Numbered from the stretch's first letter, positions 7,489-13,326 are shown. The stretch is DNA of 43,181 nt from Betaproteobacteria bacterium RIFCSPLOWO2_02_FULL_63_19 (GCA_001770415.1 MEQX01000015.1:31453-74633), one strand, 5' to 3'. Numbers and translations: made by a program. The notes: a model not told the origin generated them from the sequence alone.

Positions 7489-8991
7489 CTACGGATACGT
7501 TGCGGTCGTGCCGTCGTTCAGGTGCCAAGCCTGCGTTGAAAAATCCTTGGAGACCAAAGCCTCCGGGCAGCCGTAAGGACATGGAACGCAGGACGATTTC
7601 CCGAAGTCCGAGAGTTCGCCTACGATCAGGTCGCTCGTATTTCGATAGGTCCTAAATCCCGTACGCAGGCTGCTGGCCGCAACCACCTCGCAAAGCGCCG
7701 AATCGCTTGCAGTCGGGGTGGCCGAGAGCGCGTCGGCGAGATCGTTGCCGATGCGGTACGCAAGCTGGGAAGGCAGCGGGTCGAGGCTGCCGCGCTGCAG
7801 GAGATCCCACGCATGCGCTCCGGCCAGTTGCACCGACCAGGGCACCCCCAGTGAGCGCGAAACGAATCCGAATTCGATGTCGTTGTCGATGTGCGAGATC
7901 ATGCATTGTCCGCACAGCGTGAACGTCGAGGTGTGACCGGTCCCTGAGCAATTCGCGGTCGGACATACGGCATTATTCTGCAGGTCTCTCAAGCTGCCGG
8001 TTACGAAGTCCATGTTTGTACCGTTGCTGGCGACAAACCTCGTTCCATCGTACATGCCGCGTTCGGAGTCGGGCAATGCCTGCAGACGCTGGTGCATGAT
8101 CTTCAGACGGGCGAAGAAAACACTGGTAATGTCAGGACCGCAATAGTCTGTCCCGGACGGAACCGATGCATTGATCGTTCCTGGCCCGATCAGGTTTTCG
8201 TCGACAGTGATGACAAGACCATAGCCGCAATTGTGCGGCGCCGGATCGGGGTATGCGCCGGCGCCGTCGATCGATATTGCGTCGCCATGCAAGTGCATAC
8301 CGGAACAGCCGTTATCCTGGCCCGCAGTTCTCCCGCCACCGATGCGCGATAGCGCAATTACGGAACCGGCGGGGAAGGTTCCCAGTGGCGAGCCGAGTTG
8401 CACCGCGGGGACGAGCGCTGCGAATTTGCCGTACGAACGCTTCTGTATGAATTCATCGGGCGCAACGGCGGCACGGAGGTCGGTTTCGCCACTCCAGATG
8501 ATGGAGGGCACGAACGTGCCGGTGCTCGATTGATAGGCGAGTTGCACGTCATAGGTTGAAGGCGTCGCCGAACCGTCGGCAAGCTCCACACCGGGCACGA
8601 ACACCGTGAAGTAACGTGTGAAATACGCCGCTGGCGAGCCGTGTTGAACACACGATTCCGTAAGTTCAGTCAGCGAAAATTCTAGTGAGGAGGCCGATAC
8701 CTGCTGGAGCACCGCCTTGTACCAGCCGTTTCCGGGGACGAATACCAAAGGGATATCCAGGCGGCCGGTCGATGGATCGTATCGCGAGGGCGTACTCGTG
8801 CTCGCACCTACCTTGTTCTTGCATTGGTCGAGGCCGGTAGTCGACGTTTGGGCATCTGCGATTCCGACGCCGCAGACGAACAGGGCAATGCATGCGAGGG
8901 GCACGACCCAGCGCCGGACCCGCGACGAGGGTCTCGTGGTCAACGGCTTGCGAGAGGGGACGTCCATCAGGAAGATTGATCCTGTATTCAT
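7489..8991 (-). CDS. Secreted hypothetical protein (possible Tat/Sec signal peptide)
   Basis: 500 aa. An AAGGAG ribosome-binding site lies 8 nt before the ATG at 8991. The N-terminus reads ...SRVRRWVVPLACIALFVCGVGIADAQ. The protein is Cys-containing and Gly/Ser/Thr-rich, with no family I can name. Confidence 0.6.
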   Translation of the reverse strand: MNTGSIFLMDVPSRKPLTTRPSSRVRRWVVPLACIALFVCGVGIADAQTSTTGLDQCKNKVGASTSTPSRYDPSTGRLDIPLVFVPGNGWYKAVLQQVSASSLEFSLTELTESCVQHGSPAAYFTRYFTVFVPGVELADGSATPSTYDVQLAYQSSTGTFVPSIIWSGETDLRAAVAPDEFIQKRSYGKFAALVPAVQLGSPLGTFPAGSVIALSRIGGGRTAGQDNGCSGMHLHGDAISIDGAGAYPDPAPHNCGYGLVITVDENLIGPGTINASVPSGTDYCGPDITSVFFARLKIMHQRLQALPDSERGMYDGTRFVASNGTNMDFVTGSLRDLQNNAVCPTANCSGTGHTSTFTLCGQCMISHIDNDIEFGFVSRSLGVPWSVQLAGAHAWDLLQRGSLDPLPSQLAYRIGNDLADALSATPTASDSALCEVVAASSLRTGFRTYRNTSDLIVGELSDFGKSSCVPCPYGCPEALVSKDFSTQAWHLNDGTTATYP

Positions 8992-9154
8992 GGCGATGTC
9001 TCCTTCAAACTGAATTGGTCAAATCGTCCAGCTCGGGCGGACATACGAAATCGGATCGATTCCGACTGCTGCCAGACCTTTCTGTCACCGGTTAGATGCA
9101 GCCGTTGGACGACTACATCAACCATTGACGCAAATCCACTCCGCGATGCCTTCG

Positions 9155-10594
9155 TTAGCGCACCGTGAATCTCAGAGGATTCGGACTATAGACGAGCTGA
9201 CCGCTGGTCAATCGATACCCGCAGAAAACCGAATAATCGGCAGGAGGGAGTTGAGTCTGCGCAACCAGATTCGTATTGACAGTGGCTTGAAGGCCCACGC
9301 TTCCATAACCGCGAAGATCCGCTAGCTGTCCGCTCCAAGGCTGCCATCCGTTGCTGGTCAGCATGAACCACAATTCTCCCGGCTCGATCAACGCCACCGC
9401 AAGCAGATCGGCCAACCGATCTCTGTCGGTCGCACCGACAGAGATCGTCACGCCGAGGGAAATCTTGGTTTCCTTGGGGATTTCGCTCCCGGACACCGTA
9501 GGAAGCTGGTTACCTGTCAACCCGAATGCGACCGTCGTCGCGGTAGCGCCAGGCGTGCCATCCGCGTTAATCACGGACCCAGCCTGGACTTCACCCAAAA
9601 GCGCGCTGCAATTTGATGTTGATCCGCCGTTGGAACCCGCGCACGACCATGTCCACGGACCGGAACCGGAAACGGAACTGGCGGAGCCTGAACTGCACAG
9701 TTCAACGCTCGGCGCAGAGGAAACGGCGCTACCGTCACTGGAGCCGCAGACACCGTTTACGGGGACGGATGCCAAGCTAGCGGAGCAGAACGCGTTCGAA
9801 CCGCCGTCGGACCCCGCGCACGACCACGCCCATGGACCGGATCCGGAAACGGAGCTGGCGGACCCTGAACTGCACAGTCCCGCGCTCGGCGCGGAGGATA
9901 CGGTGCCGCCGTCACTGGAGCCGCAGGCACCGTTAACGGGAACGGGTGCCAGGTTCGCGGAGCAGGACGCGGTGGAACCGCCGTTGGAGCCCGAGCACGA
10001 CCACGTCCATGGACCGGAACCGGAAACCGAACTGGCGGATCCCGAACTGCACAGTCCCGCGCTCGGCGCGGAGGATGCGTTGGCACCATCGCTGGAGCCG
10101 CAGGCACCGTTAACGGGAACGGGTGCCAGGCTCGCGGAGCAGGACGCGGTCGAACCGCCGTTGGAGCCCGAGCACGACCACGTCCACGGACCGGAACCGG
10201 AAACGGAACTGGCGACACCCGAACTGCATAGTCCGGTGCTCGGTGCGGAGGATACGTTGGCGCCGTTGCTGGGGCCGCAGGCACCATTGACCTGGGCAGA
10301 CGAATTCGCAGAGCAGTTCGTTGATGTCCCTCCATTTTGACCCGCGCAGGTCCAAGTCCATGGACCGCTGCCGAGGACGGAACCCACAAGCAATACGTCC
10401 CCAGGTAAGCACAGGTCGGAGTTCGGCACAGTGGAAAAAGTACCACCGTTGCTGGTGCCGCATTGCCCTGGACAATCGCTACTAGTGCTACAAGCGGTAC
10501 CCCAGTCCCAAGCAAACGCAACTTCAATACAGGCAAACGAAACGACCAGCACGTAAAGCGCCCTGCACAAGCACTTGGTTCGAGACATCATCAA
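9155..10594 (-). CDS. Secreted cysteine-rich tandem-repeat protein (4-5 copies of a 59-aa, 4-Cys repeat) with a C-terminal domain shared with the neighbouring RCC1 protein
   Basis: 479 aa. Signal peptide CRALYVLVVSFACIEVAFA. Repeat unit is about VPVNGACGSSDGANASSAPSAGLCSSGSASSVSGSGPWTWSCSGSNGGSTASCSASLAP. The start may be a TTG at 10592-10594 or the ATGs 3 or 6 nt inside. Confidence 0.7.
   Translation of the reverse strand: MMMSRTKCLCRALYVLVVSFACIEVAFAWDWGTACSTSSDCPGQCGTSNGGTFSTVPNSDLCLPGDVLLVGSVLGSGPWTWTCAGQNGGTSTNCSANSSAQVNGACGPSNGANVSSAPSTGLCSSGVASSVSGSGPWTWSCSGSNGGSTASCSASLAPVPVNGACGSSDGANASSAPSAGLCSSGSASSVSGSGPWTWSCSGSNGGSTASCSANLAPVPVNGACGSSDGGTVSSAPSAGLCSSGSASSVSGSGPWAWSCAGSDGGSNAFCSASLASVPVNGVCGSSDGSAVSSAPSVELCSSGSASSVSGSGPWTWSCAGSNGGSTSNCSALLGEVQAGSVINADGTPGATATTVAFGLTGNQLPTVSGSEIPKETKISLGVTISVGATDRDRLADLLAVALIEPGELWFMLTSNGWQPWSGQLADLRGYGSVGLQATVNTNLVAQTQLPPADYSVFCGYRLTSGQLVYSPNPLRFTVR
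9590..10297. repeat. Four near-identical 177-bp coding tandem repeats (plus one degenerate copy extending to about 10465)
   Basis: The 59-aa periodicity shows in the minus-strand protein. It is mirrored in the plus-strand shadow ORF 9351..10340 (EPPLEPEHDHVHGPEPETELADPELHSPALGAED... repeated). Boundaries were computed from residue positions. Confidence 0.7.
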
Positions 10595-10677
10595 GGCATG
10601 CCTATGGCGAAATTAGGACTTCTGGACCGGATCAGGCTAGCATAAACTGAATAAAATCTGAACCACGAGGTGGTCGA

Positions 10678-13326
10678 ATGAATTGGAGGTCCCTCCGGGT
10701 ACAGGCACGTATTGCGTTCGGTCTCGGCGCGCTTTGTCTTGGGGGCATTACATTCGCCGCGCCACCTCGACTGGCCGCCGGCGATACATTTTCGATGGCG
10801 CTGAGCACCAACGGCGAGGTATACGCGTGGGGCAGCAACATCTTTTCGCAACTGGGCGACGGCACGGGCGCGTTTAACCCCAACCCCTCCATAGCGGCCG
10901 TCGTGCCGGGCGTGAGCCGAATCGCCGGCGGAAACCAATGCAGCTACGCTTTGATGGAAAACGGGACGCTCTGGGCCTGGGGTGACAACACCAACGGACA
11001 ACTCGGTGACGGCACCACGCGGTCACACATCAACCCTGTTCGCGTTACGGGTATTCAAGAGCCCATCCTTGGTGTTGCCTCTGGCGCACGTCATGCACTT
11101 GCCGTCGATCGGAACGGCCAAGTCTGGGCTTGGGGTTCCGGCGACTACGGTCAACTGGGTCGCGAGACGACGCGCATCGAATCCACGCCATTGCCGGTGA
11201 ACGGCGTGCCACAGGCGACTGCGGTATCCGCGGGCGTCTATCACTCGCTGGCGCTTGCTGTCGATGGCACGGTGTGGGCTTGGGGGTACAACGCCGACGG
11301 AGAGCTCGGCAATGGCGGCACTACCAATAGTGCATTGCCAACCAAGGTGGCGGGCTTATCAAACATCGTTTCGATCGTGGCGGGCGCATACCATAATTTG
11401 GCGCTGGATCGAGATGGCACGGTCTGGGCTTGGGGGTTTGGAGGATCCGGCCGCCTTGGCGACGGTAGCAGCCAGACCAGGACGACGCCGGTCATGGTGC
11501 AGGGGTTGCCGATCGTCGCAAGTATTGCCGCGGCCAACATGAGTGCAGCGATCGATCGCGATGGCGCGGTATGGTTTTGGGGAACCAATCTATACGGCCA
11601 GTTCGGCGAGGCTGGAGTCGAAACCTCATTGCTGCCTCGAAAGAACGCAGGCTTGAGCGCCCTTCGAATCGCCGAGCTGGGATTCGGCTGGTATCACGCG
11701 ATCGCGCGTACGGCAGATGGAAAAGTGCTTACGTGGGGTGGCAATGAGCTTGGACAAATCGGCGATGGAACAATTGCAACGAGCACCGTGCCACTTGAGA
11801 TTTCGCAAATTGACCATGCCATACAGGTGAGCGCAAGCGGACAGCATACCTTTGTTGTCGATGCCGACGCGAACGTGTGGGCGTGGGGGGCCAACGGCAG
11901 CGGCCAACTCGGCGATGCGACGGTAGCACTGAGTAATCTTCCCAAGGCAGTACTTGGGCTCTCGGGAATCGCGGACATCGCGGCGGGTGGCTATCATGCC
12001 CTTGCGCTCGACGTTGGAGGGCATCTTTGGTCGTGGGGTGACAACACCAATGGACAGCTCGGGGATGGCACTACAGGTATGCACGCAATACCCCAGCAAC
12101 TCGCCGAGCCGGCGAACGCCGTGGCGATAGCGGCCGGTCGCGAATTCTCCATCGCGATGGATTCGAACGGCGAAGTCTGGTCCTGGGGGCGCTACCTGAA
12201 TGGACAATTGGGTCGAATAGGAAACAGTCTCGTACCGGCGAAGATATCGGGACTCCCCAAGGTGAAGGCGATAAGCGCGGGGGCCGAGCACGCGTTGGCA
12301 GTCGACGTCGATGGCGGCGTTTGGGCATGGGGGCGTAACGCGGACGGCAACCTCGGCGACGGCGAAACCAAGGACAGGAGTGTTCCGGTACGTGTTACGG
12401 GCGTGCCTCCGCATATCTTGGTTGCCGCGGGGCAGTATCACAGCCTTGGGCTTGCCGCCGACGGCACGGTTTGGGCGTGGGGCAGAAACAGTGATGGTCA
12501 ACTCGGAGACCAGACAACTGACGAAAGGCGCGTGCCGACAATGGTGCCTGGACTGGCAGAGATCGTCGGGATTGCAGCTGCCGGGAGCCACAGCCTGGCA
12601 TGGTCGTCAGACGGAACATTGTGGGCCTGGGGGAGCAACGAAGACGGCCAACTTGGCGCAGGCAGTAGTTCTCGTATTGTTACGTCGCCCGTCGGAATCG
12701 GCGACATTGGTCGAATTACGCATGCGGTTGCAGGATCCAGACATACACTTGCAACGCGCGAAGACGGATTGGTTTGGGCTTGGGGGCGCAATTTCGAGGG
12801 CCAACTGGGCGACGGGACCTTTGCAGCCTACAACCAGCCGGTTCTCGCGGTAAACCAGACTCTCACTGGCGTTCTCGACCTGAATTCCTTGGTCACCGAC
12901 AGCATCCCGACCGGGAAATACCCGCCGTTTCTTGCCAGGGCCACGCGGACCGGGGACTTAAGCGGATTGTCGCTCTCGGTGGAGGTCAAGGGCATCTCAA
13001 TAACAGGGATTTTCGCCTCCGAGATGGGCCGATTCGCGGCCACCTACAATGTCTATGTCGGAGCCAGCGTTTCCTCGGGCGGCACGCCAATCTATTTTCA
13101 ACTCGATGCAATCAACACTTGGAGCACTCTACGATTGCCGATGGCGGAATATCTGCGCGGGGTGACGCTGGACAGCCAAAACGATGTGGTCACGGCACAG
13201 CTTCTTCAGAACGTTGACCTTTCGGGGCTTCCCGGGGCCGAAATTCTAGTGGGGTACGGAACCGATTCAGACGAGATGCTGGGAAGCAAGCGCTACAGAG
13301 TCATTTTTACCGTGCCGGCGCAGTAG
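10678..13326 (+). CDS. Secreted RCC1-repeat (beta-propeller) protein with about 150-aa C-terminal non-RCC1 domain
   Basis: 882 aa. A GAGGTGG ribosome-binding site precedes the ATG. The signal peptide is RIAFGLGALCLGGITFAAP. At least 13 repeats follow the pattern GxxHSLALxxDGxVWAWGxNxxGQLGDGT. The C-terminal tail resembles the C-terminus of the 9155..10594 protein. Confidence 0.85.
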   Translation: MNWRSLRVQARIAFGLGALCLGGITFAAPPRLAAGDTFSMALSTNGEVYAWGSNIFSQLGDGTGAFNPNPSIAAVVPGVSRIAGGNQCSYALMENGTLWAWGDNTNGQLGDGTTRSHINPVRVTGIQEPILGVASGARHALAVDRNGQVWAWGSGDYGQLGRETTRIESTPLPVNGVPQATAVSAGVYHSLALAVDGTVWAWGYNADGELGNGGTTNSALPTKVAGLSNIVSIVAGAYHNLALDRDGTVWAWGFGGSGRLGDGSSQTRTTPVMVQGLPIVASIAAANMSAAIDRDGAVWFWGTNLYGQFGEAGVETSLLPRKNAGLSALRIAELGFGWYHAIARTADGKVLTWGGNELGQIGDGTIATSTVPLEISQIDHAIQVSASGQHTFVVDADANVWAWGANGSGQLGDATVALSNLPKAVLGLSGIADIAAGGYHALALDVGGHLWSWGDNTNGQLGDGTTGMHAIPQQLAEPANAVAIAAGREFSIAMDSNGEVWSWGRYLNGQLGRIGNSLVPAKISGLPKVKAISAGAEHALAVDVDGGVWAWGRNADGNLGDGETKDRSVPVRVTGVPPHILVAAGQYHSLGLAADGTVWAWGRNSDGQLGDQTTDERRVPTMVPGLAEIVGIAAAGSHSLAWSSDGTLWAWGSNEDGQLGAGSSSRIVTSPVGIGDIGRITHAVAGSRHTLATREDGLVWAWGRNFEGQLGDGTFAAYNQPVLAVNQTLTGVLDLNSLVTDSIPTGKYPPFLARATRTGDLSGLSLSVEVKGISITGIFASEMGRFAATYNVYVGASVSSGGTPIYFQLDAINTWSTLRLPMAEYLRGVTLDSQNDVVTAQLLQNVDLSGLPGAEILVGYGTDSDEMLGSKRYRVIFTVPAQ

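Follow-up and report, generated by a model that had tools for sequence, protein, structure and literature searches.

Neighbouring exported proteins of an aquifer betaproteobacterium probably carry divergent members of one Ig-like domain superfamily

Three adjacent exported proteins

The DNA analysed here, called the window, is a stretch of 43,181 nucleotides from Betaproteobacteria bacterium RIFCSPLOWO2_02_FULL_63_19 (GCA_001770415.1, MEQX01000015.1:31453-74633), a free-living organism represented by a metagenome-assembled genome (MAG) from aquifer groundwater or sediment. Three adjacent genes in it encode exported proteins, named A, B and C below, and the subject of this work is the C-terminal tails of B and C. 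These tails are probably divergent members of one superfamily of immunoglobulin (Ig)-like domains, from which protein A is excluded. The three open reading frames (ORFs), with positions counted from the first letter of the window and lengths in amino acids (aa), are as follows.

7489-8991, minus strand: protein A, 500 aa; exported (signal-peptide-like N-terminus), hypothetical
9155-10594, minus strand: protein B, 479 aa; signal peptide, Cys-rich 59-aa repeats and Ig-like tail
10678-13326, plus strand: protein C, 882 aa; signal peptide, 14 RCC1 blades and C-type tail

A first-pass annotation of this DNA had proposed that all three proteins share a terminal module; the ORFs, coordinates and peptides that it quoted are all correct on translation. 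The N-termini of A, B and C each pass from basic through hydrophobic to small residues and thus resemble Sec signal peptides, as judged by eye from the sequence. That of protein B reads MMMSRTKCLCRALYVLVVSFACIEVAFA|WD.

Protein C is a clear member of the bacterial RCC1-repeat propellers (PF00415/PF25390), through its N-terminal 720 residues only. Multiple blades exceed the Pfam gathering threshold, with PF00415 matching 14 stretches (E=7.6e-152) and WD40_RLD (PF25390) scoring 801 bits, where the cut-off is 150 (E=1.7e-241). Its homologues are full-length and collinear, at 39-51% identity. The tail lies outside every RCC1 model and has no match in Pfam or NCBIfam, and a literature search on secreted bacterial RCC1 propellers returned nothing relevant. 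The features of C and the tail of B are placed below.

10771..12837, plus strand: RCC1 repeat region of C, residues ~32-720, with blades enough for two propellers (Pfam)
12847..13323, plus strand: C tail, C-type module, residues 724-882, 159 aa; hallmarks WPMAEF and VGYGTDxDEM..RYR.IFTV
13039..13314, plus strand: C-tail core matched to the B tail by hhalign, residues 788-879, YNVYVGAS ... IYFQLD..TW ... ILVGYGTD ... VIFTV
9158..9577, minus strand: B tail, B-type Ig-like module, residues 340-479, ~140 aa
9161..9412, minus strand: B-tail core matched to the C tail by hhalign, residues 395-478, ADLLAVAL ... WFML..GWQPW ... SVFCGYRL ... LRFTV

Family profiles link the tails of B and C

A family was assembled around each tail. 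A word-indexed search with the B tail returned only one near-identical relative, whereas exhaustive phmmer revealed a family of 86 proteins at E<1e-3, which local iteration extended to 125 domain copies. The C family was built from six first homologues and then enlarged with 11 GTDB genome loci and 55 JGI metagenome loci. The B tail matches the hidden Markov model (HMM) of the B-type family at 7e-43 over HMM positions 2-141, and the C tail matches that of the C-type family at 3e-80.

Comparison of the two families by hhalign gave a collinear alignment of ~130 columns in the register that had been proposed by eye. With the 125 B domains set against seven C sequences the match has P=6.3e-4, and an independently built MAFFT alignment of the B family gave P=8.4e-4. 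Enlarging the C family to 18 tail sequences brought this to P=1.7e-5 with a probability of 78%, and 69 sequences gave P=2.4e-5 and 75%. The alignment pairs YNVYVgA of one family with DLLAVAL of the other, YFQLD..W with WFML..GW, VGYG with CGYR, and FTV with FTV. The core common to both tails spans ~85-90 aa, within a whole module of ~140 aa in B.

Two sets of controls were run on this comparison. In the first, the real score was reached by none of 300 column shuffles and none of 300 block shuffles. In the second, the real score of 35.7 stands against 13.5 for the reversed alignment; 200 column shuffles averaged 11.3 (maximum 18.9) and 200 shuffles of blocks of eight averaged 19.7 (maximum 26.8), with none in either group reaching the real score. 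The family profiles therefore uphold the proposed link between the tails of B and C.

Sequences intermediate between the two types

Cross-matches between the families run in both directions. The B-family HMM matches the tail of an NHL-propeller protein at E=2.5e-4 and marginally matches several other C-type tails, always in the tail and always in register. This protein (L012 1625-3268, plus strand, from a Comamonadaceae MAG) carries a C-type tail after an NHL/Teneurin-NHL propeller, and of all C-type members it comes nearest to the B-family HMM. In the reverse direction, the C-family HMM matches the B-type domains of proteins P0028 and P0031 at ~1e-4, in both cases in the correct domain.

The strongest link between the B-type and the C-type is the tail of a BNR/Sortilin-Vps10 propeller protein (L018 1316-3475, minus strand), whose gene adjoins one for an RCC1 protein with a C-type tail. 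This ORF was in neither HMM training set and entered the analysis only as a flanking gene. Its C-terminal domain has the hallmarks of both types, GWQPW and VGYGTDADEML (...GWQPW...IYVGYGTDADEML...), and its match has an E-value of 5e-11 with the B-family HMM (residues 622-708) and of 3.5e-16 with the C-family HMM (residues 633-719). In a joint MAFFT alignment, the penultimate strand-loop forms a graded series, GYRLTSGQLVY - GYQNGAGDIIY - GHGGADGDIYY - GYGTDADEML. The tails of B and C are ~18% identical in this alignment, and since identity is so low, we reject a recent domain exchange between the neighbouring genes.

Structure models of the two tails

An AlphaFold2 model of the B tail, built with 36 family members, is an all-beta sandwich of Ig-like type with a mean predicted local distance difference test score (pLDDT) of 95.7 and a predicted template modelling score (pTM) of 0.88. 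The order of strands in the model of the C tail corresponds to that of B under the hhalign register, one to one save for the segment containing DEML. Both models match Ig-like folds. Foldseek TM-scores are at most 0.51.

In the PDB, sequence searches starting from the C family and from protein A gave either nothing or insignificant matches. The B-family profile picked out pyruvate oxidase there (E=0.004), which we treated as a false positive because it is an alpha/beta protein and was aligned across an insertion.

One superfamily or two unrelated sandwiches

Several results weigh against a shared module in B and C. Direct comparison of the two proteins, named in the first-pass annotation as a check on its own claim, gave scores no better than shuffles, so the claim fails at the pairwise level. 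The best BLASTP match between B and C has E=0.65 and lies outside the tails, and the Smith-Waterman score of the 130-aa tails is 32 against a mean of 28.9 (standard deviation 5.0) over 2000 shuffles, that is, z=0.63 and p=0.24. A profile of seven C-tail sequences, from the first six homologues, finds no match in single B or A sequences, and with filters off neither family HMM matches the other window protein at E<=10. Even between profiles, the hhalign probability stays below 80% and rose no further with 69 sequences. The AlphaFold2 model of the C tail, though all-beta, is of low confidence (pLDDT 57.8, pTM 0.58), and its DEML segment is a short helix where the B-type has a strand. That both tails share one fold is supported by these models, taken without direct superposition. 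As to what the module does, the strictly C-terminal position of the C-type and its near-invariant GYGTDxDEM point to a role narrower than that of a general-purpose spacer. The evidence shows homology, the B-tail fold and how the domains are arranged, and from these we infer mechanism and function.

Could the tails simply be two unrelated beta-sandwich domains that resemble each other in the rhythm of strands and loops, by analogy or chance? The pairwise scores and the hhalign ceiling of 75-78% fit such an account, and block shuffles, which keep strand-like segments, already lift the null mean to ~20. We nevertheless consider it unlikely, as the real score exceeds all 1000 shuffles in an alignment that is collinear throughout its ~130 columns, the reciprocal HMM cross-matches fall in the correct register, both HMMs match the L018 tail significantly over one and the same stretch, and intermediate motif variants exist.

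Taken as a whole, the results are probably best explained by common descent of the B and C tails within one Ig-like superfamily of old ancestry that leaves protein A out. The C-terminal 140-160 residues of the two proteins would then be divergent members of a broad group of beta-sandwiches, so far without database annotation, on Sec-exported multidomain proteins of Proteobacteria. Protein B would carry a GWQPW/GYRL subtype and protein C a WPMAEF/GYGTDxDEM subtype, and their relationship would reflect old common ancestry and not recent shuffling between neighbours. The module itself is most likely a non-catalytic binding or accessory domain, or a spacer. It might bind a surface or glycan ligand, and would hold the functional part of each protein, its propeller or its Cys-rich repeats, in place within the cell envelope or in the extracellular space.

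Distribution and domain architectures

The two types differ in where they occur. Copies of the B-type, whose named sources are Beggiatoa and Thiomargarita, are C-terminal in 57 cases, internal in 36 and N-terminal in 30, and are often in tandem; these counts are approximate because many of the proteins are metagenomic fragments. Neighbouring domains include Calx-beta, fn3, Lcl_C, DUF2202, Flg_new_2 and Beta_propel (beta-propeller) domains. The B-type signature is GWQPW ... GYRL.dG.ivYn ... F.V, and W89, L96 and Y129 alone are invariant or nearly so in its alignment.

The C-type is confined to Betaproteobacteria MAGs and ends 0-10 aa before the stop codon in 81/81 ORFs. In 61 of these it follows RCC1 repeats in the same ORF; other copies follow NHL or BNR propellers. 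Its signature is WPMAEF ... VGYGTDxDEM ... RYR.IFTV, of which VGYGTDxDEM..RYR.IFTV is near-invariant. Paralogues that combine RCC1 repeats with a C-type tail often form tandem arrays in metagenome contigs of related Betaproteobacteria, of three genes in L055 and L066 and of two in L021, L027, L044, L047 and L050.

The first-pass annotation had described a common module on otherwise unrelated secreted proteins. This holds for B and C, and the module proves to be promiscuous, on many exported proteins. Across 36 members it falls outside every Pfam model, and it has no counterpart among NCBIfam models or PDB families. Its description defines a widespread extracellular Ig-like module, and uniting the GWQPW/GYRL and WPMAEF/GYGTDxDEM families would improve the annotation of many hypothetical secreted proteins of environmental Proteobacteria. 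It does not add a new kind of system; the module is a new family, so far without annotation, within a class of domains that is very common.

Sorting signals and related domains

Sorting domains offer another account of such tails. The C-terminal domains of the type IX secretion system (T9SS) are Ig-like sandwiches too, and the sorting domain Por_Secre_tail, like the C-type tail, stands at the extreme C-terminus behind diverse N-terminal parts. On this model B and C would be cargo of one sorting machine and their tails a dedicated export or anchoring signal, which the fixed position of the C-type tail behind three propeller classes and its near-invariant motif would favour. The B-type relatives differ in not being restricted to the C-terminus, and their variable position argues against a general C-terminal sorting signal. 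Moreover, neither the window nor the related loci showed secretion-system genes next to the genes concerned, and to our knowledge no T9SS is known in Betaproteobacteria. A T9SS C-terminal domain was rejected for lack of any match to a sorting-domain model in Pfam (E<=1) or NCBIfam (E<=0.1). A PEP-CTERM/exosortase anchor was rejected likewise: the C-termini, ...NPLRFTVR and ...RVIFTVPAQ, lack a hydrophobic segment, and NCBIfam gives no match. The idea of a sorting signal is thus distinctly unlikely, and the proposal of a shared anchoring or sorting domain is not borne out by tails that have no C-terminal transmembrane segment, match no sorting-domain model and, in the B-type, vary in position.

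A narrower idea concerns the C-type alone, which could be a recognition tag of an undescribed export, anchoring or processing pathway for secreted beta-propeller proteins of Betaproteobacteria, with the B-type as its non-specialised ancestors. We give this a slim chance, because the tail is strictly C-terminal, carries the near-invariant VGYGTDxDEM..RYR.IFTV, follows three unrelated propeller classes and occurs in tandem arrays. Among all the features seen, only this subtype, with its motif and its fixed place at the C-terminus after a beta-propeller, has a small chance of hiding a more specific role.

Two further groups are among the known domains nearest to the module. Generic bacterial Ig-like and carbohydrate-binding accessory domains, such as the O-antigen-binding C-terminal domain of Wzt (2r5o/6o14) and RbmA, differ from it in identity of only 4-13% and in giving no PDB-chain profile match, and their ligand-binding residues cannot be mapped onto it. 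In the ester-bond adhesin repeats (Clostridium perfringens Cpe0147, 4mkm/4ni6; 8f9l), the Thr-Gln bond and the catalytic His and acid have no conserved counterpart in the module, and these domains occur in Firmicutes whereas the hosts of the module are Gram-negative Proteobacteria. An intramolecular ester-bond adhesin domain was rejected on this ground, the B-type having only its three (nearly) invariant residues.

Protein A lacks the shared module

The sequence of protein A is that of hypothetical protein A3H32_04000 from Betaproteobacteria bacterium RIFCSPLOWO2_02_FULL_63_19 (100% identity); Pfam and NCBIfam gave no match to it, and the PDB none of significance. We collected 22 homologues from Betaproteobacteria, including Rubrivivax. 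The block near its N-terminus that had been thought similar to the tails lies in a domain conserved across this family.

8476..8808, minus strand: N-terminal beta-rich domain of A, residues ~62-172

Profile comparison does not support this similarity. The B-family profile aligns to the single A sequence over residues 31-177 with a non-significant P=0.067. Against the profile of 22 A sequences its best match has P=0.06 and falls on residues 323-464 instead of the N-terminus; the C-family profile gives P=0.5. The B-type HMM leaves protein A unmatched even at E<=10 with filters off, and BLASTP of A against C or B is no better than of B against C. Smith-Waterman comparison of the three pairs of 130-aa regions gave z=0.63, 0.93 and 0.14, all within one standard deviation, and a six-frame search of the window with both HMMs found self matches only, hence no further copy of either module. 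As the A-family profile matches neither tail family, the module is common to two proteins and not three, and the N-terminal domain of A is a beta-rich unit different from it. This domain may have arisen by internal duplication of a ~50-aa motif, sRYd..tG.LdiPlVfvPG..WY.a.L......F.l, to judge from the weak alignment of the two halves of residues 62-172 (hhalign P=0.002, probability 13%).

Gene neighbourhood

In L068 (GCA_043776975.1, 5025-9464) an A homologue (53% identity) divergently adjoins an RCC1 gene with a C-type tail (39% identity to C), and no B-like gene separates the two. Short ORFs that hold only the N-terminal domain of A flank genes of the same RCC1-plus-tail kind at L002 3553-4185 (minus strand) and L054 3-407 (plus strand). 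Four other contexts of A homologues have no RCC1 gene. The whole of protein B has relatives only in near-identical sequences and two fragments, and B looks like a lineage-specific addition to the locus. The pairings in L068, L002 and L054, set against the scarce relatives of B, imply that an association of A, or its domain, with RCC1 proteins may be meaningful, with B not involved. Adjoining module-bearing genes are not a conserved feature, apart from L018.

These contexts bear on the fullest form of the first-pass annotation, in which the module is common to A, B and C and the three make up a single surface or host-interaction locus. The signal-peptide-like N-termini of all three, the alignment of the B-family profile to the N-terminal part of A and the neighbourhoods of the three loci just described speak for it. 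It is nonetheless highly improbable, given the failure of the A-family profile against both tail families, the four contexts lacking an RCC1 gene, the housekeeping genes that flank the three genes in the window (M24 peptidase, Usp, NTP transferase and cation ATPase) and the free-living aquifer origin of the organism. Within this proposal, a functional cluster keeps weak support from the adjacency of A-type and RCC1 genes, offset by the contexts lacking RCC1 and by the near-identical or fragmentary relatives of B, while a role in host interaction has no support from a groundwater or sediment MAG. Scans for promoters and terminators did no better than shuffled controls.

Other features of the locus

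Between its signal peptide and its tail, protein B has a Cys-rich repeat region.

9602..10510, minus strand: Cys-rich repeat region of B, ~five 59-aa modules (translation)

The modules follow the pattern CG..G...P...LC..G...GSGPWTWSC.G.NGGS...CSA. At the DNA level, a 177-bp tandem repeat at 9624-10285 (3.7 copies, 88% matches) encodes the 59-aa module, and protein B, including this module, has no match in Pfam or NCBIfam.

A near-identical contig from another metagenome, L001, keeps the gene order of the window. At L001 6158-10420 gene calling divides the RCC1 gene and B into several shorter genes (415+471 aa; 86+139 aa), a division that probably stems from misassembly or a frameshift within the repeats.

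The C-terminal two thirds of protein A, residues ~180-500 (window 7489-8450, minus strand), has no relative in Pfam, NCBIfam or PDB. It is a Cys-containing region kept in the 22 homologues, with stretches such as GCSGMHLHGD and CGQCMISHIDNDIEFGF.

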